A program made the position numbers and the translations under genes. The notes beneath the pieces are model-generated. The model saw only the letters and a list, made by a program, of their open reading frames with translations. It ran no database searches and had not been told where the DNA came from. Positions 16,238 to 59,190 of a stretch of 64,000 nt of DNA are shown piece by piece. How positions within the stretch are numbered: position 1 is the first letter of the stretch; each line of letters opens with the position of its first letter. Source of the stretch: Octopus vulgaris (taxonomy: Eukaryota); assembly GCA_951406725.2 (NCBI GenBank), contig OX597817.1, forward strand, positions 106,392,001 to 106,456,000. Direction: 5' to 3'.

Positions 16238-16625
16238 GTGTAGCGGACCCTTAGTGAAATCCTCTCTCTCTGACATATATAACACAAATACGGACGTAGC
16301 AGATAACATTTAATCTTCGGATACTTAGGCCCAGTTGCGTCCACTACTCTGATTGGTTGGTTTTGGTGCAGTTTGACTCTTGCTTTATTTCGCGACAATG
16401 TGTAAACCAACCAATCGCAACCTTCGGATAAGGTCCCGTGACACAGTCTTCTAAATGCTTTGTTTGAGTCACCTAAACCCTTTAAAAGTTAGTCACGACA
16501 AACGGTTACTTGTCTTTGGTTCTAGTCCTTCTTAGGACTAACCTCTGACCACAAAGCTACTCAGCCATGTTCCAGCGACACACAGCCAGTTCCAGTGACA
16601 CAACCAGTTCCAGCGACAGACAACA
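16238..16625. mobile_element. Possible solo LTR abutting and truncating the Tc1 ORF
   Basis: tgtagcgg...caaca termini; three ~18-bp tandem repeats (gttccagcgaca...) near the right end. Confidence 0.35.
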
Positions 16626-17330
16626 TTAACAGCATTTCGGGACCTTCTCCTCCATGTTTAACAGGAAGAAGGCAGTCTAGGTTAGATCCTTTTTTTGGCT
16701 GTCTCCACATGTATACTTGGCCGATGGTTGGAAATAAGGTAATGGATGACACCGAGAAAATAACATTCTTCCGCTGCTCTAGGGGCCAATTCTGTAGGTT
16801 TTTACTCCACTCTAAACGCTTTGCAACGTTTGTTTTTGGAAGTAGTAGTTTTCTGATTGCAGCCCTCCCGTGAAATCTGGCTTTCTGCAGCTCCAGGGGA
16901 ACAGCTTTTGTGGAAACTGGGTTCTCGAAGTGGTCATTAAGCTCTGCAGTAATTTTGACAGAGGCGCTTTTGTGATCCTTTCTAACAATTCGCGTAAAAG
17001 TTCGACAGTCCCTGTATGAAAGTTTTGGTTTTCTTCCGGAGATTTGTTTCGACGAGGAGGTTTTTCCTTCTTTCTCAAAGGCTGTCAATACTTTCGAGAC
17101 AGTACTTCTTGATACACTAAACATTTCAGTTGTTTTTGTTACGCTAGCGCTTGCCATACGAGCACCAACAATTTGACCTCTCTGAAAGTCCGATAGATCA
17201 GTCATTTTAATGAATTTTAATTACCTTTTTCTGATGTTATCTGAAAAGAAACAGCAATTTTAGCAAAACATATTAAGCAACACTAAGAATAAATGATAAA
17301 AAAACATAAAAATAAAGACGCTTTTGACGG
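16626..17330 (-). mobile_element. Tc1 transposase remnant (paired-like HTH and first catalytic block; C-terminus missing)
   Basis: MTDLSDFQRGQIVGAR...GRKPKLS...RLEWSK...KNVIFS...VKHGG. Confidence 0.9.
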
Positions 17331-21984: not shown

Positions 21985-22778
21985 TTTCTACTCTAGGCAC
22001 AAGGCCCAAATTTTGTGGGGATGGGGCCACTCGATTAGATCGACCCCAGTGCGCAACTGGTACTTAATTTATCGACTCCGAAAGGATGAAAGGCAAAGTC
22101 GACCTCAGCGGAATATGAACCCAGAACGTAGCGACGGGCGAAATACCGATTTCTTTACTACCCACAAGGGGCTAAACACAGAGTGGACAAACAAGGACAA
22201 ACGGATTAAGTCGATTATATCGATCCCAGTGCGTAACTGGTACTTAATTTATCGACCCCGAAAGGATGAAAGGCAAAGTTGACCTCGGCGGAAATTGAAC
22301 TCAGAACGTAACGGCAGACGAAATACGGCTAAGCATTTCACCCTGCGTGCTTAACGTTTCTTACTTCTTTATTGTCAACCAGGGGCTAAACATAGAGGAG
22401 ACAAACAAGGACAGGCAAAAGTATTAAGTCGATTACATCGACCCCAGTGCGTAACTGGTACTTAATTTATCGACCCCGAAAGGATGAAAAGCAAAGTTGA
22501 CCTCAGCGGAATTTGAACACAGAACGTAACGGCAGACGAAATACCTATTTCTTTACTACCCACAAGGGGCTAAACACAGAGTGGACAAACAAGGACAGAC
22601 AAACGGATTAAGTCGATTACATCGACCCCAGTGCGTAACTGGTACTTATTTAATCGACCCCAAAAGGATGAAAGGCAAGGTCGACCTCAGCGGAATTTGA
22701 ACTCGGAACGTAGCGGCAGACGAAATACCGCGAAGCACTTCGCCCGGCGTGCTAACGTCTCTGCCAGCTCGCCGCCTT
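21985..22778 (-). mobile_element. SINE family 2 multimer (four body units)
   Basis: Unit tcgaccccagtgcgtaactggtact...gacgaaatac at ~22039, 22218, 22436 and 22620. Confidence 0.88.
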
Positions 22779-22896: not shown

Positions 22897-24145
22897 TATC
22901 AGGTGCAGTAAAAAGTAAGCAACATTTTGAACCATGAAGAATTTGTACCGGATTTTTTCAGAGTTCTGAATGTTTTTAAACCTCTTTTTGCAATTATCTG
23001 ATAATACAGACATAGACTTGCCCAAATGCATTCAGTGAATTAGCATTGATATTTCTTTCACCGTTTTTACTATCATCTGGAATTGAACTATCAAAGCGCG
23101 ATATTCGGGCAATTTTGTTGTTCAACTTCAGAAAAGGACGTAAAGCAGCTGAAACTGCTCGCAATATCAACGAAACGTTTGGTGAGGAAATTACCAGCGA
23201 GTGGTCAGCTTGAAAATGGCTTAAACGATTTTGCAGTGGAGACTTGAGCCTTGAGCGTAGTGGACGCCCATCTGTCAAAGAAGGCAGTCAATTAAAGACC
23301 GTTATTGAGAAAGATCCACATAAAACCTCACGAGAACTGACAAAAGAACTTCAAGTTAACCAGAAAACTACCTGCAACCATTTGCATGCGATCGGAAAAT
23401 TAAAACAAAAATCGACAAATGGGTAGCACATGATTTAAATGAAAATCAGAAAATACGCAGATATGAAATTTGCTCGTCGCTTCTTCTCCGTAACCAGGCC
23501 GATCCATTTCTCGACCGTATTGTAACTTTCGAGGAAGAGACGATTCTGTACAATAATAAAAAACGTTCTTCGCAGTGGTTGCACCAAAATGAAGCACCGA
23601 AAACATTCCCTAAACCCGAGCTCTTGAAAAAGAAGTTTATGGTGACTGTTTGGTGGTGTACTGCTGGACTCATCCACTATAACTTCTTAAAACCCGGAAA
23701 AACTATTGCTTCAGAAAAATATATTGCCATAAAATTGCCAAAATGAACGAAAAACTGCTACTCCTCCGCCCCAGACTGGTCAACAGAAGAGGGCCAATCA
23801 GTCTTCATGACAGTGCTTGATCACACGTTTCACTAACGACGCTCTGAAGTTGAGGGAACTTGGCTACGAAGTTCTTCCCCACCCAGCTAAATCCCCAGAC
23901 CTTTCTCCTTCTGACTACCACTTTTTCCTGCGGGAGAAAGAGTTCAAGAATCAAACCGATGCTGAAGAGTTCGTCAGCTCCAGAACTCCAGATTTTTATG
24001 TTACCAGAATAAACAAATTTGTAACTCGTTGGCAAAAATGTGTTAATTGTAATGGTAATTACTTTGATGAATAAAATTTCTGCATTGTTGAAATATGTTG
24101 TGATGAATTTCATATTTCAAAACGTTACTTACTTTTTACTCAGCC

Positions 24146-24212: not shown

Positions 24213-24336
24213 ATATATACATATATTGATATTGATATAAATGGTAAGACAGCAAAAGAATGAAAGAGACCTCGATGTTATGTAAATAGAGGAATTTATC
24301 TGTAAATATAATATGTGACAATTATTTGGTAGCCAT

Positions 24337-24397
24337 GATAAAACTCCAAGTTTCGGATGCCGAGGTGGAAATCTACGCCGCCATATCTTCTGTTATC
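24337..24397 (-). ncRNA. Type I hammerhead ribozyme motif, family A (core variant CAGAAGA)
   Basis: GATAA-CAGAAGA-stem II-GAAAC-ttgga-GTT-TTATC. Confidence 0.55.
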
Positions 24398-24499
24398 CGA
24401 CTATCAGTGAAAATGCTATGAAAACATTTTTCCTTAGCATTTTCTCCGATGGCCGGATAACTAAAGAGATGGCGGTGTGAGCATTTTCTCCGATGGTCG

Positions 24500-24560
24500 G
24501 ATAACTGAAGAGATAGCGGCGTGGATTTCCACCTCGGCATCCAAAACTCGGAGTTTTGTC
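24500..24560 (+). ncRNA. Type I hammerhead ribozyme motif, family A (GAAA mutated to AAAA)
   Basis: GATAA-CTGAAGA-stem II-AAAAC-tcgga-GTT-TTGTC. Confidence 0.55.
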
Positions 24561-24595
24561 ATGGCTACTGAATAATTGTCACATATTACATTTAC

Positions 24596-24677
<82 letters not shown>

Positions 24678-24957: not shown

Positions 24958-25018
24958 TTTATTTAAAAGCAGCAGAAATTCAACAAAACCTGTTGAATTT
25001 CTGCTGTTTTAAATAAAG
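24958..25018. repeat. ~28-bp-arm hairpin
   Basis: ctttatttaaaagcagcagaaattcaaca-aaacc-tgttgaatttctgctgttttaaataaag. Confidence 0.85.
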
Positions 25019-25086
25019 CATATTACTCTATCCCTGGTATTTGAGTACTTTTTTTCCACCTTGTTTTACATTTATGTGTTTACTCC

Positions 25087-25158
<72 letters not shown>

Positions 25159-25180
25159 ATGTTACATTACTCGGTAGTCA

Positions 25181-25243
25181 AGATAAAACTCTGAGTTTCA
25201 GATGCCGAAGTGGAAATCCACAACACCATCTCTTCGGTTATCT
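25181..25243 (-). ncRNA. Type I hammerhead ribozyme motif, family A (CCGAAGA core)
   Basis: Reverse complement of 26942-27004. Confidence 0.62.
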
Positions 25244-25437
25244 GGCTATTTGAAAACGTTATGAAAAAATACCGTTAAAAATGAAGGGAAATTACTCTGT
25301 TATAACTCTGCTTTGCCTGCGTACTTATACATCGCTCGCATTTTTCGTCATAAAAATTATATAAAAATACATAAAAATATATAAAAATATATAAAAATAT
25401 ATAAAATCTTCTTGGGACATAACACAGAAAGCATGTT

Positions 25438-26096
25438 CTATCCGTTTTCTTTAGGGGACCAAAAACGTAACAGAAATTTAGTCACATGTGGGCATGATCC
25501 GAAAAGCTCTGTCCTTGTATTTAGACATGTGGTAGGGTCTAAGCTGCTTTTCCAGATAAGCCATCTCTCCATGTCGCATAAACCGCACCTTCCGCTGCCG
25601 TTAGTGTAGGGCTTACATCTGGCCAAAATCTTCCATTGTATGTTATAATCGACACCTTTATCTCTTAAAGACCAAATATGATTGGATAATTGTGTCGCTT
25701 TTCTTTTGTTCCAGTGCCTAAAGCTCAAAGTGTGGTTATTGAACCTGGCCTTGAAATTACCCTCTGTCAGGCCCACGTATTTCTTCGTCGAAACGGTGTC
25801 TTTAGTGGTTATAGAGTTTACGGTAGCTTCATATATGAAGGTCTTGGACATGCAAGCTCCATTTAGCGGGCACAATTCTTTATTCCTGCATGAACAGCTG
25901 TTTTCTTCTTGTGTTTTTTGTATGTTATGATTGATTATGTTTTTAAAATTGGTAGTTGAACTAAAACTAATTTTTAAATTGTGTCTATTGAAGAGTTTCC
26001 TATAAGCATGGTTAACTGGAAAATGTCTATCTATCAGTGCTAGGAAATATTTACCTATATTGAAGGCCACCTCGGGTGAGTAAGGGGGCGTAAACC
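25438..26096 (-). CDS. PLE C-terminal region: RT thumb/linker, Cys-rich finger and GIY-YIG endonuclease (5'-truncated, frame intact)
   Basis: FTPPYS..AFNIGKYFLALIDRHFP, CSCRNKELCPLNGAC, FIYEAT...YVGLTE.NFKARFNNH, LSNHIW, CGLCDMER, LNTRTE...CPH. Confidence 0.88.
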
Positions 26097-26760
26097 TTAC
26101 GCCCCCTTACTCACCCGAGTGGCCTTCAATATAGGTAAATATTTCTAGCACTGATAGATAGACATTTTCCAGTTAACCATGCTTATAGGAAACTCTTCAA
26201 TAGACACAATTTAAAAATTAGTTTTAGTTCAACTACCAATTTTAAAAACATAATCAATCATAACATACAAAAAACACAAGAAGAAAACAGCTGTTCATGC
26301 AGGAATAAAGAATTGTGCCCCTAAATGGAGCTTGCATGTCCAAGACCATCATATATGAAGCTACCGTAAACTCTATAACCACTAAAGACACCGTTTCGAC
26401 GAAGAAATACGTGGGCCTGACAGAGGGTAATTTCAAGGCCAGGTTCAATAACCACACTTTGAGCTTTAGGCACTGGAACAAAAGAAAAGCGACACAATTA
26501 TCCAATCATATTTGGTCTTTAAGAGATAAAGGTGTCGATTATAACATACAATGGAAGATTTTGGCCAGATGTAAGCCCTACACTAACGGCAGCGGAAGGT
26601 GCGGTTTATGCGACATGGAGAGATGGCTTATCTGGAAAAGCAGCTTAGACCCTACCACATGTCTAAATACAAGGACAGAGCTTTTCGGATCATGCCCACA
26701 TGTGACTAAATTTCTGTTACGTTTTGGTCCCCTAAAGAAAACGGATAGAACATGCTTTTG
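26097..26760 (+). pseudogene. Inverted copy of the PLE GIY-YIG region with several 1-nt deletions
   Basis: Same peptide in ORF 26315-26860; frameshifts relative to the left arm. Confidence 0.85.
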
Positions 26761-26941
26761 TGTTATGTCCCAAGAAGATTTTATATATTTTTATATATTT
26801 TTATATATTTTTATGTATTTTTATATAATTTTTATGACGAAAAATGCGAGCGATGTATAAGTACGCAGGCAAAGCAGAGTTATAACAGAGTAATTTCCCT
26901 TCATTTTTAACGGTATTTTTTCATAACGTTTTCAAATAGCC

Positions 26942-27004
26942 AGATAACCGAAGAGATGGTGTTGTGGATTTCCACTTCGGCATCTGAAACTCAGAGTTTT
27001 ATCT
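26942..27004 (+). ncRNA. Type I hammerhead ribozyme motif, family A (CCGAAGA core)
   Basis: AGATAA-CCGAAGA-GATG..GTGGA/TCCAC..CATCT-GAAAC-tcaga-GTT-TTATCT; 6-bp stem I. Confidence 0.62.
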
Positions 27005-27100
27005 TGACTACCGAGTAATGTAACATATTGTATAGATAAATTTCCTCTATTTACATAATATTGAGGTCTCTTTCTTTCTTTTGTTATCTTACCGTTTTAT

Positions 27101-27141
<41 letters not shown>

Positions 27142-37450: not shown

Positions 37451-37904
37451 GTTATTAATACTACGAATACATGTTGTTATATTTGATAAAATAAACTTAA
37501 TTCTATTATGTTTTGACTTGGTTATAGTCATTTTTTTTCTTTCTTATTCTTAGGAGAACTTTAGCAGTCAAAATCAACAATTTAGCTACTTACCAATAAA
37601 CGGATAGATAAATAAATAAATAAATAAATAGAAAAACAAATTCTAAAGAAACAGGCACAGAAGTGACTGTGGTACAAGAGGTTTCTTTCCCAATCACATG
37701 ATTTCAGGTTCAGTCCCACGAAGTGGCACCTTGGGCAAGTGTCCTCCAATGTAGCCTCGGGTTGTGATTAGATTTAGTAGACGGAATTGAAAGAGCCCAT
37801 CGTATACAAATACACGCACACACACACACACACACATACACACACACTCACTCACACACACGCGCACACACGCACACATACATACATACATACATACATA
37901 CACA

Positions 37905-37952
<48 letters not shown>

Positions 37953-38049
37953 CATATCGTTTTTCTTTTTAGAAAAACATAAATCCGGAGAAGAAGCACA
38001 CTCTAAGAAGTAGAGCAGTCTATATTTATTACTAGTGAAGGCCGGTTTA

Positions 38050-38109
38050 TAGGGTTACCCTGAGTTTCTCATCATAAAGGGTACCTTTATGGCGTATCTT
38101 CAGACCCTA
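38050..38109 (-). ncRNA. Type I hammerhead ribozyme motif, family B, intact core
   Basis: TAGGGT-CTGAAGA-..CATAAAGG/CCTTTATG..-GAAAC-tcagg-GTA-ACCCTA. Confidence 0.8.
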
Positions 38110-38154
38110 AGTCCTATCTTAAATATTTTGAAGAGGACATAGGCCAACAGGTCT

Positions 38155-38214
38155 TAGGGTCTGAAAATACACCATAAAGGTACCCTTTATGACGAGAAAC
38201 CCTGGGTAACCCTA
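38155..38214 (+). ncRNA. Type I hammerhead ribozyme motif, family B (CTGAAAA, G8 mutated)
   Basis: TAGGGT-CTGAAAA-stem II-GAAAC-cctgg-GTA-ACCCTA. Confidence 0.7.
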
Positions 38215-38305
38215 TAAACCGGCCTTCACTAGTAATACACACACATACACACACACACACACGCACATATACGTATGTACATACATACATACATACATAC
38301 ATACA

Positions 38306-38339
<34 letters not shown>

Positions 38340-38681
38340 CACAGTTGTGTTTGTTTTTCTGTTTGTGTATGGGTCCCATAATCGCTTGACAACCGGTGTT
38401 GGTTCGTTTATGTCCCATTAATCCAACGGTTCGGTACAATTAGCCCGAAAGAATAAGTACCAGATTTTTTTTTAAATACGTACCGGAGGTTGATTTGTTC
38501 GACTAAGCCCTTCAAGACGGGAGCTCCAGCATGGCCAGAGTCCAATGACTGACACAAATAAAATATAAAAGTTGGGGTCTGCGTCAATGAAAATTTTCTA
38601 ATAAAATTCTAATAAAATCTAGATACGTTTGTTTTCTGTAAAAAGAGAGAATTCCTTATTTTTTTAACTTTGCACGGTATA

Positions 38682-47239: not shown

Positions 47240-48601
47240 CCTCAAATAGTTCCTGCCACTGTTGAAACACATCTTGCAACATTTTTTCCAGTTTTGGAGA
47301 GCCTCCTGCAATGCGTAGAAGCAAATTTACTTCGATTTCTTCAGTCCTCAGAAATCGGCGACTTTCATGGCGGATTTTCACTTTTGGACCAAAACAGCTG
47401 CAGGGGCCAAATCCGGAGAGGATGGGTGGGAGATAAGAGTTGTCTCTTGCTTTACCAAAAAGTCACGGACAAAGAGTGACCCAAGAGCAGGTGCGTTGTC
47501 CGTTGTCCGGATCTTTACCTTTTGACCTACAGATTTTTAAAATAATTTTTTGTAACTAAACACTTTCAAACTTCGGATACTGGTAGAATGTGTCATATAA
47601 AACATCTTTTACTCTTAGCATTTTTGAGAAAAACTTATATTTATGAAGTAATTTCACGTTTAAGTAGTCCTCTTTCGGTAATTTCAACCAATCAATGACG
47701 TGTATTCAGCTGAATTAAAGTACTGCCGTTGTTTGTCAACAACAACTATCGGCAGTGTATTTTTCGTTTGTCACTTTAACGTGAAATTACTTCGTAAATA
47801 TAAGTTTTTCTCAAAAATGCTAAGAGTAAAAGATGTTTTATATGACACATTCTACCAGTGTCCGAAGTTTAAAAGTGTTTAGTTACAAAAAATTATTTTT
47901 TAAATCTGTATGTCAAAAGGTAAAGATCCTGTTGTCCTTGTGCAGCAACCAGATTTTGTTTGTCTGAGGCTCAGGCCAACTTACTTAGCATTACCTCTCT
48001 CAAACGCCACAGAACACCCAATTGAAAGTCTTTATTGATCGTCTGCTCACATGGAACAGACTCTCGATGAACGACGCAATTCCAATCACCTTCACATCTG
48101 AATGATTCTCATGTACTTTATTTTGGTCCCAGCGGCAATGATCCAATCCTCGGCGATGATTGCCGTTTTGTTTCGACATCATTATCTAATACACACGTTT
48201 TATCATCTGTTCTAACACTTCAAAAAGTTTACATCATCATTCAAACGATCAAACATCTAAGTGGCTGTATTTTGGTTCGGTTTTCGTTCCTAAGCTTTGC
48301 TGAAAACAAAGCCACTTCAAATTGTGCTTAAAATCAGAAGGCACGAACAAGAGACCCCTTACTTGAAAAATTTCAGAGATTGTTAGACAACAATTTTTAC
48401 GCCGCAATGTAAATGTCGTCTGTTGTGCTAGCTTTCCACAGGCCTTTTGCAATATTAAAAGGTTCCCGTAAAAGTTTTCCCAATTTGAAACAGGCGTGCT
48501 TGGCTAAATGGACAAACGAAAGAAGGGCACTCAGCACATTTATTGGGTATGGGCTTTGAAACTTTAAGCAGCACGGAATTCGAATCAAACTGTTCTGATC
48601 C

Positions 48602-49329: not shown

Positions 49330-49890
49330 CACAACGCCTGAAATTTTGTTGGGGATGGGCGGGGCCTGATTTGCGTGCTCCACTGATACTTATTCTACCA
49401 ACCCTGGAAAAGATAAAAGATCAAGCTGATCAGCGGAATTTGTACGCTGAACGTAAAGACGGATGAAATACCTGTTTCTTTACTTCCCACAAGGGGCTAT
49501 ACACAGAGGGGACAAAGAAGGACAGGCAAACGGTTTAAGTCGATTAGATTGACCCCAGTGCGTAACTGGTACTTATTTAATCGACCCCGAAAGGATGAAA
49601 GGTAAAGTCAATCTCGGCGGAATTTGAACTCAGAGCGTAGCGGCAGACGAAATACCTATTTCTTTACTACCCACAAGGGGCTAAACTCAGAGAGGACAAA
49701 CAAGGACAGACAAAGGGATTAAGTCGATTAGATCGACCCCAGTGCGTAACTGGTACTTATTTAATCGACCCCGAAAAGATGAAAGGCAAAGTCGACCTCG
49801 GCGGAATTTGAACTCAGAACGTAACGGCAGACGAAATACCGCCAAGCATTTCACCCGGCGTGCTAACGTTTCTGCCAGCTCGCCGCCTTC
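49330..49890 (-). mobile_element. SINE family 2 trimer
   Basis: Three body units, the leftmost decayed. Confidence 0.85.
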
Positions 49891-52214: not shown

Positions 52215-53730
52215 TAGGCACATAGACCTGATTGGAGCGACATTAAAAAAAATATGAAGCAGTGACAGGAGGAAAAATTAACGCGGAAAAATCAGTGGGT
52301 ACCTGGAGAGGCAAGTCCTTACCATCCGACAGTGGCGTGGGGCGCTGGACAGATGGTCCGGTTAAATTGCTCGGGATCTGGTTCGGTCCGGACCTCTATG
52401 TGGAGAAAAACTGGGACGAGGTGACGAACAGGGTGGCTAATCTCACCCAGAAATGGGCCGAGAAGAAGCTATCCCTGAAAGGTCGAGCTGAGGTGGCGAA
52501 TGCGTGCATCGCATCTGTCATCTACTACCGCTTGACCGTTGCCTCTTGCCCCGTATGCTGGCTGAACAAGCTGGTGCGCTCATTCTTCCGCTTTCAGCGG
52601 AAGGGACACGTTCCGCTAGTCAGGCGCTACATCTGCTGTCAACAGCTGATGAAATGGGGTGGGGCTGGGCATGTTGTGGTTGCTGATGCGCAGACATGCG
52701 CTCAAGCTGCGACATCTACAGCGTTTCCTTGACGATGAGCAGGTGTGGTCGCCGTTTGTTAGACTCGCTCTCCCACAGCTCGTTTCTTTGACTGAGCTGC
52801 AATCATGGATTAGGCACAGACCGAGGAGGGGCGCTTGGCCCCTCGAGTGCGGTCAAGCGCACACAGCTCTTTGCCAGTTGGGCAATGCGGTCGGTAGTAG
52901 TTCCACTGTCGCATTCTATAGAGGGTTGGCGGAGGAAAAGTGGGACGAGGTTCTCTGGGAAGCTCTGGGCGTCGACGAGGATCAACTTACTGGTCTGTTT
53001 CGGAGGACTTTCGGATCGGGGCCTTTGGATAACTTCCAGAAATCCCTGGCTTGGCAGTGCTACCGTAGGGCGCTGCGCATTCGGGATAAACTTTACAGGC
53101 ACGGAAGTTCCGTCAGCCGAGCCTACCCGAAGTAAGCTCAGAGCAACGAAACCGTTCTGCACGCACCCATCCAGTGCCCGAACACCTGCTGGCACGTGCA
53201 GGTCGGATCCGGCTATCAGCTGAATCCATAGTGAAGATTGCCCTGCCGCCCTCCTTTGGCCGGGAGGGACAGGACATTTTTATTTGCCTGGTGGCTGTAG
53301 CGAAAGAGGTAGTGTAGTGGACACGTTTGAAAGGGCTAAAGACAAACACTTTCCTCTTTGGCCAAGTCCTCATAAACTTCTTCAAGTTTCACTTGAAAAG
53401 GAAAGTGAGGGTGGAGAGGGAAGTATTGTTTTCTAGCAAATTTGTTGAAAGGTGAGTGAATGTTGGAAAAATGGTCAATGTGAAAGGACCCATTTTGAGC
53501 ATGCGCCTGTAAAAATAAAAGGAGAGGGCTCTTACCCTGTTGGTCTGGCCACCCGTGGCTTTTGTGGGTTTTCCTACGAGTAGCCTTAAATCGACTCCCC
53601 CTTCTGGGAATTTAACTAGTTCAATTTTTTCTGTTATCCACTGTTTACACGCTTCAAAACCCGTTGTATTGTCCTGTTTTGTCATTTCATGTTGCTTTAT
53701 GTAAGCCCTTGTGGCTAATAAAGAAATAAT
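52215..53730 (+). mobile_element. Tx1/L1-clade LINE 3' fragment (post-RT region, zinc-binding region, 3' UTR, (TAA)n tail)
   Basis: KINAEKS, VKLLGIWFG, LSLKGRAEVAN, GLGM, LAWQCYRRALRIRDKL, ETVLHA..CP. Confidence 0.88.
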
Positions 53731-58703: not shown

Positions 58704-58771
<68 letters not shown>

Positions 58772-58774
<3 letters not shown>

Positions 58775-59157
58775 GTAAAAAAATACAAACTGGGACAGGA
58801 ACGCAAAACATTTAGAAGACGATACAAAAAGCCTTCAATCTTCAGTCAAGAACTGGATCATCTTCGCAATTTCGGCTGATTAATCTTGAGATTGCTCCGA
58901 TCTGGCCAGCCCCAAAGGAAAATCTAAGCCAAGCGCATTAGATTCCTTGGAAGAAAGCCTCCAAGGACTCTAATGCGCTTGGCTTAGATTTTCCTTTGGG
59001 GCTGGCCAGATCGGAACAATCTCAAGATTAATCAGCCGAAATTGCGAATATGATCCGGTTCTTGACTGAAGATTGTAGGCTTCGAATGTCCTGTCCGTTT
59101 TTTGTATCGTCTTCTAAATGTTTTGCGTTCCTGTCCCAGTTTGTATTTTTTTACATA
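58772..59157. mobile_element. Fold-back element (~180-200-bp arms, 8-nt spacer 58952-58959), probable PLE derivative
   Basis: Near-perfect inverted repeat flanked by (TA)n. Confidence 0.8.
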
Positions 59158-59190
59158 TACATATATATAGCGACGTCCGTACCCCTTTTG

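Follow-up and report, generated by a model that had tools for sequence, protein, structure and literature searches.

Insertions of EN+ Penelope-like retroelements (PLEs) can contain an inverted, 5'-truncated copy, carry a one-sided tail of 30-40 bp and use microsatellites as targets, according to the available text of PMC8557442. Head-to-head order and palindromes at the inverted junction are described in the accessible part of PMC3846280, in which self-priming is proposed. In the available text of PMC4209133 (2014), dual minimal hammerheads located 100-700 bp apart on opposite strands are thought to be related to truncated PLEs. So far, the mechanism of PLE integration is still described as unresolved in the accessible sections of PMC8557442 and PMC3846280.

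In this study, we analyzed a head-to-head repeat of ~280 bp that lies in a 64-kb stretch of octopus DNA, hereafter the window. Our results indicate that this repeat is very probably the leftover of one heavily 5'-truncated EN+ PLE insertion. It presents the features of such insertions, namely a head-to-head 5'-truncated copy, a tail at one end and a hammerhead near the 3' end of the pseudo-LTR. A Penelope-like origin had already been suggested by an earlier reading of the letters alone (the sequence-only reading). We infer the same origin, on which the layout and a GIY-YIG analogue in the same window (family B) agree.

Structure of the insertion and its host repeat

The insertion and its surroundings comprise the following features.

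37655..37808, plus strand: 5' half of the host SINE-like repeat (matched at 10 further places in the window, 69-78% identity).
37809..37957, no strand: left part of the central microsatellite of the host repeat, (CA)n/(TACA)n/(TA)n (repeat listing).
37958..38237, no strand: whole insertion, made of a long arm with tail, a turning point and a short arm (inverted repeat, family depth and loose ends).
37958..38026, minus strand: one-sided tail of ~70 nt, left arm only, from an AATAAA overlapping the arm end to (TA)n (family depth).
38027..38115, minus strand: left arm, the outward-reading 3' end of a pseudo-LTR-like sequence (inverted-repeat search).
38050..38109, minus strand: hammerhead with an intact core; stem I of 6 bp, CUGAAGA, stem II of 8 bp and GAAAC-N5-GUA (pattern scan).
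38111..38139, no strand: turning point, an imperfect palindrome with its centre at AAATATTT (38121-38128) (shuffles and depth).
38123..38148, plus strand: family sequence upstream of the hammerhead, right arm only (contigs with loose ends).
38149..38237, plus strand: right arm, which stops 29 nt past the predicted cut site, directly on (CA)n (inverted repeat).
38155..38214, plus strand: hammerhead with A at core position 8 (38166) and H17 at 38208 (pattern scan and fitted runs).
38238..38341, no strand: right part of the central microsatellite of the host repeat (repeat listing).
38342..38575, plus strand: 3' half of the host SINE-like repeat (11 other matches in the window, 65-75% identity).

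The two arms of the inverted repeat (38027-38115 and 38149-38237) are 89 nt long, are spaced by 33 nt and are complementary at 83/89 positions (93%). Their six differences fall at 38061, 38063, 38071, 38093, 38098 and 38112. Either arm contains a single 60-nt type I hammerhead, and the two motifs face outward on opposite strands. The sequence-only reading had described a minimal 211-bp element in which about 60 of the 85 nt of each arm were ribozyme. The hairpin and the 60-nt motif stand, but the arm length does not, and neither does the minimal unit: the insertion continues leftward past 38027 to about 37958, an edge which, lying against (TA)n, is placed to within a few bases, and its turning point is nearly private, as relatives turn elsewhere.

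The palindrome score at the turning point was matched by 3/300 shuffles. From the centre to stem I, 15 nt fewer are present on the left side than on the right. The distances between the cut sites and the microsatellite are 29 and ~98-104 nt. Microsatellite flanks the insertion on both sides, with no readable target-site duplication. BLAST found no second copy of the hairpin family within the 64-kb window.

The dispersed host repeat, which we take to be a tRNA-derived SINE, bears in its 5' half what is presumably a B-box-like sequence (GGTTCAGTCCC, 37707-37717). Its halves are 533 nt apart at this locus, compared with 0-187 nt, mostly microsatellite, in eight copies paired by coordinates. The repeat is therefore split in its central microsatellite, which bears out the earlier placement of the insertion in the microsatellite of a SINE-like repeat. 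The host repeat faces the plus direction, and two T5 runs (37960, 37966) lie ahead of the hairpin. Runs of this kind are expected to terminate RNA polymerase III. The SINE-driven co-transcription proposed by the sequence-only reading thus finds no support, because these T5 runs come before the hairpin and a plus transcript would contain only the A8 copy, paired to its antisense.

Hammerhead motifs

The minus copy reads from 38109 to 38050. Its stem I is UAGGGU/ACCCUA (6 bp), C3 is at 38103, and the 8 bp of stem II are formed by CAUAAAGG/CCUUUAUG, next to which come GAAAC, five nucleotides and GUA (38058-38056). H17 corresponds to 38056, after which the cut is predicted, and helix III is weakened (ACUCAGGGU). 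The plus copy, from 38155 to 38214, has the layout of the minus copy but with CUGAAAA (A8 at 38166), and its helix III is the near-palindrome ACCCUGGGU. The core elements CUGANGA, GAAA and NUH occur in order, complete in the minus copy and with A8 in the plus copy.

When the 64-kb window was scanned on both strands with a strict type I pattern, one site was returned (38103, minus), and relaxing position 8 added one further site (38161, plus). The strict pattern is loose enough to match 6/40 block-wise dinucleotide shuffles; once tightened post hoc (stem I of at least 6 bp, stem II of at least 8 bp, short helix III), it matched 0/40. Rfam at the gathering score gave 0 matches in the whole window, where it missed the hammerheads of family B too. 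At E<=10, 34 weak matches were obtained over 37900-38400, none of them to a hammerhead family, and these were chance matches to microRNA hairpins and snoRNAs.

Stem II is flanked by U (38096) and A (38069), and the G10.1-C11.1 pair is absent. The flanking A is retained in about 90% of the DNA-run depth. Although this pair is described as highly conserved in the available text of PMC4209133, it is a usual, not an obligatory, feature of type I hammerheads. Altogether, the core, the helices and the family variation agree on the hammerhead identity of both motifs, as first read from the letters, and the minus-strand copy with complete core, 6-bp stem I and 8-bp stem II was recovered by the pattern scan. 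Regarding stem III, the earlier description of a near-palindrome of the dimer type was right, but dimeric cleavage between the two copies was not, since they lie on opposite strands.

Variation of the family in public sequencing runs

Four of the 24 public runs listed (two DNA and two RNA) were fitted to 37960-38240 at 80% likeness; they come from related organisms or individuals (best share of words 0.33). In the two DNA runs, 854 and 1042 contigs fit this interval, as fragments and not as a copy count. Family depth peaks over 37980-38020, reaching 15,503 and 28,978 at 38000-38009, and the loose contig ends at 37966 and 37974 are (TA)n. This peak and the (TA)n ends, both to the left of 38027, indicate that 37958-38026 belongs to the element. 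Depth over the tail (37975-38020) is about tenfold that over the hammerhead region, and loose ends at 38026-38027 resemble the arm in diverged form. This pattern suggests either that several subfamilies have the tail in common or that insertions of the tail alone are frequent.

At 38110-38119, depth was 112 and 370 in the two DNA runs, compared with 583/558 and 2107/1743 in the neighbouring bins. We rejected 38123-38148 as plain spacer because contigs run through it: 24 and 40 contigs with loose ends before 38123 continue past this point, as family sequence would. Among the joints listed, 6/15 are inversions at other breakpoints, to which a separate table adds two, each represented by one contig per run. 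This count excludes 'opposite strand' joints, which are same-direction continuations or internal deletions on an inverted reference. The joints listed also include one of tandem type, from 38108 back to 37979, and two others common to both DNA runs. One contig (X1 record 4; 37966-38155, with 22 other letters and 16 gaps) spans the turning region of the hairpin, so that the junction is not strictly unique; it may represent the orthologous locus in a relative or a similar event. In this family, 5' truncation is variable and AT-rich or microsatellite sequence is targeted, as seen in the eight other inversion points and the (TA)n ends of the tail. Two short patterns of the hairpin family gave 0 and 0 matches in two metagenome scans.

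Within the hammerheads, core position 8 carries G in 80% and 84% of the depth of the two DNA runs. As G is the family majority, the plus copy is the mutant, in agreement with the G8 mutation noted in the sequence-only reading. N7, a free core position, varies in 12-15% (38099, 38165). One side of an A-U pair in stem I has G in 35%/35%, and the opposite side C in 32%/27%, unphased within contigs. Three pairs are added to stem II by the majority letters at 38072/38192 and 38171; with the majority letters at 38063 and 38203, helix III becomes ACCC-A-GGGU, self-complementary around one unpaired base. Among the differences listed, no row concerns U4, G5, A6, A9, G12-A14 or U16.1, and a change of C3 appears in a single contig and in 6 RNA reads, which have 2 different starts. 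Both arms have minority letters in common: the family letter differs at 38034 in 93%/94%, and at 38072/38192 in 73-93%. Such sharing is expected if one template was copied twice. A candidate compensatory change at 38071/38171 in stem II was set aside; both sites are CG dinucleotides, which may simply decay.

Comparison elements and other repeats in the window

Two further fold-backs of the window belong to family B.

24226..24600, no strand: short family B stub in (TA)n; both of its hammerheads are decayed, and a tail of ~70 nt is present on one side.
25155..27105, no strand: long family B fold-back of ~1.95 kb; both arms include the end of a GIY-YIG ORF, and the element is flanked by (TA)n left and right.

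The arms of the long element are identical at 882/884 aligned bases. A hammerhead-like motif is found at both outer ends (25237, minus; 26948, plus), with the core boxes CCGAAGA and GAAAC-UCAGA-GUU in each, and the 72-nt tail is on one arm only. The order of turning point, hammerhead, ~30 nt and tail on one arm is the same as in the 38-kb insertion. Both cores have C in place of U4, and this common change predates the duplication. The long fold-back appears young, with a palindromic turning point near 26050-26140. The short stub has no remaining ORF and resembles the 38-kb hairpin; it appears older and has a 44-bp direct duplication at its turning point. From cut site to microsatellite, the distances are 33 and 105 nt in the long element and 43 and ~116 nt in the short one.

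The ORF end of the long element (25438-26106, minus) matches GIY-YIG in Pfam with an E of 0.011, below the cut-off. It carries CxCX5C, CxxC and CxH, the motifs attributed to the Hydra clade in section 11 of PMC8557442, in its available text. Among longer homologues, the best is P0001 (E 7.8e-40), in which the motifs RWK, DKx and YxDD occur. Pfam returned nothing above the cut-off for P0001 and P0002, which are therefore assigned to PLEs by their motifs and by similarity; NCBIfam gave one chance match for the family B ORF. Between the left arm and long B, the helix III segments agree at 11/13 letters. Outside the core and helix III, the hairpin family (family A) cannot be aligned with family B. 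Being alike only there, family B is an analogue and not the parent. An ORF, with its GIY-YIG end, was seen for family B and not for the hairpin family, whose upstream view covers at most 30 loose letters, and no coding parent of the latter was found in the 64-kb window or in two metagenome scans.

The sequence at 25000-25090, adjacent to the (TA)n flank of the long element, presumably represents the T-rich 3' terminus of a further repeat family, which suggests repeated insertion into the same microsatellite. A third fold-back, at 58760-59190 in (TA)n, has 187/192 identical aligned bases and an 18-bp indel. It contains a CTGAAGA core box and extends ~25 nt further on one side; a relaxed scan did not find the standard GAAAC box in it. 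It is possibly another PLE family with a variant motif. At 47509-47929, 157-bp inverted repeats (96%) around 107 bp are MITE-like, and no hammerhead was found there. Tandem 184-bp units of one repeat family occur at 22381-22729 and 49433-49840. We take 1425-2060, 16561-17220, 23360-23746 and 52247-53135 to be decayed fragments of an RTE-type LINE, Tc1 and mariner transposases and a Tx1/L1-type LINE.

Folding, cleavage and transcription

Because the motifs are on opposite strands, one RNA never contains both hammerheads. A transcript has one hammerhead plus its own antisense, and would therefore fold as a long duplex. The computed share of hammerhead-compatible folds is 2e-57 (minus) and 2e-43 (plus) for the whole transcript, and 5.5e-4 (minus) and 0.086 (plus, but with A8) for the 60-mer alone. 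The helix III self-duplex was computed at -5.6 kcal/mol for the minus copy and -12.1 kcal/mol for the plus copy. Both hammerheads are predicted not to cut. In the available text of PMC4209133, a single minimal PLE hammerhead shows no detectable cleavage and dimers have low activity; hence, a monomer cleavage assay would be a weak test. The accessible part of PMC11167929 states that G8C abolishes the activity of a PLE hammerhead and that protein is needed.

Related copies are transcribed: the two RNA runs, of which ~6% each was read, contained 140 and 106 reads of such copies, from both strands. In that same ~6%, and in other individuals, 0/140 and 0/106 reads were 99% alike to the locus, which is a weak test of locus-specific RNA. 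No pile-up of read starts or ends is listed for the two RNA runs. As a general point on stubs, fold-backs of this kind would give double-stranded RNA if transcribed.

Discussion

The layout of the locus and the variation of its family are observed; from them we infer a parental element and the following enzymatic steps. The PLE protein would nick an AT-rich microsatellite, and target-primed reverse transcription would begin in the tail and cover the last ~190 nt of the RNA, that is, tail, pseudo-LTR end and hammerhead. Synthesis would then fold back (or re-prime) at the AAATATTT palindrome, with ~15 nt skipped, and the pseudo-LTR end would be copied again, ending before the tail. Later, both arms would have decayed independently, giving the six differences. 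The hammerheads would be passengers, with G8 lost in the plus copy and helix III weakened in the minus copy. In the parent, processing of precursor RNA likely relies on same-sense hammerhead dimers formed through the ACCC/GGGU helix III; at this locus, either hammerhead would be trapped in a duplex of ~89 bp with its antisense.

Other origins were weighed against a truncated PLE insertion. A MITE or paired Helitron ends with a chance hammerhead-like motif would account for the long terminal inverted repeats, the TA-rich ends and the CTAG near the arm ends, and Rfam finds no hammerhead here while the loose pattern also matches 6/40 shuffles. However, the family extends ~70 nt past one 'terminus', just 6-7% of the depth at 38034 has the A of CTAG, and turning points vary, with no fixed termini or junction among copies. 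Moreover, the variation fits hammerhead rules (N7 free, G8 kept, stem I balanced), and the tight pattern matched 0/40 shuffles. Such an origin has the slimmest chance of those considered and is largely refuted by the fitted-run data. It is very improbable, too, that the 211-bp hairpin is itself mobile or functional, transcribed from the SINE or a host gene as a self-cleaving RNA or as ribozyme-gated double-stranded RNA. The intact minus core, the 140 and 106 RNA reads of related copies, the one contig spanning a similar junction and the two other joints present in both DNA runs would be in its favour, but depth collapses at the junction and relatives turn elsewhere. In addition, the two hammerheads are never on one RNA, the fold shares are minute (2e-57/2e-43 for the whole transcript, 5.5e-4 for the isolated minus 60-mer), T5 runs separate the SINE head from the hairpin and, in a weak test limited to ~6% of the runs of other individuals, none of the 140 and 106 RNA reads is 99% alike.

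We also regard as quite improbable a non-autonomous, pseudo-LTR-only element, retrozyme- or SINE-like, that borrowed a PLE protein and still formed the fold-back at insertion. No ORF-bearing copy was seen in the window, in the two metagenome scans or in the upstream letters (at most 30), 3' ends are very abundant in the DNA runs, and there is the tandem-type joint from 38108 back to 37979. PLE derivatives with type I hammerheads (10.64898/2026.07.22.740005) and nonautonomous Chlamys elements (PMC8557442) are reported in the accessible parts of these sources. Yet the former source, in the same part, defines retrozymes as head-to-tail repeats whose units each contain a hammerhead, whereas this locus is head-to-head, and steep 5' truncation also enriches the 3' ends of coding PLEs, as in family B. 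A related proposal, unlikely although conceivable, is that Hydra-type PLEs mobilise the family, itself a hammerhead element that encodes no protein, that reverse transcription by Hydra-type elements of this genome starts ~70 nt past the pseudo-LTR end, at twice the published tail length, and that its hammerhead variant works with a U-A pair and a bulge instead of G10.1-C11.1. If this were true, the stubs would map the priming and fold-back sites of a little-studied clade at base resolution.

Regarding novelty, the hairpin family is described in no title or abstract start among the papers listed for octopus and hammerhead ribozymes. The word 'hammerhead' does not occur in the available text of PMC13282606, and the family may be catalogued in the repeat library of that paper or in supplements. 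As a single locus, the insertion is of little consequence, being mobile-element debris.

The truncated PLE insertion that we favour can be compared with several known systems, as far as the available texts describe them. It shares with the inverted insertions of EN+ PLEs (PMC8557442, PMC3846280) the head-to-head order, the tail on one arm, the palindrome at the junction, the AT-rich target and the hammerhead in the pseudo-LTR. Unlike these, the hairpin has no ORF, its tail measures ~70 nt rather than 30-40 bp, and the target duplication is unreadable. The type I hammerheads of metazoan PLEs, in the accessible part of PMC4209133, have the same CUGANGA/GAAA/GUH core, a long helix II, a near-palindromic short helix III and opposite-strand pairs; by contrast, the hairpin has U/A flanking helix II, a 6-bp stem I and five nucleotides between GAAAC and GUH. 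The Hydra clade, as described in the available text of PMC8557442, also has (TA)n targets and readily seen hammerheads, and family B carries its endonuclease motifs. Hammerhead shape and tail length are common to the hairpin and family B, and the hairpin family might belong to the Hydra clade only by this analogy. Non-LTR retrozymes (available text of 10.64898/2026.07.22.740005) are likewise short, non-coding, PLE-related and provided with a type I hammerhead, but they form head-to-tail arrays in which same-sense dimers are possible, whereas our locus is a single inversion. Altogether, the hairpin is real, ordinary and of a kind already known. Slightly new are the helix II junction and the length of the tail, ~70 nt in three insertions from two families. 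Its value is that of a clean example of PLE integration, in which tail, truncation and fold-back at a short palindrome can be read together.
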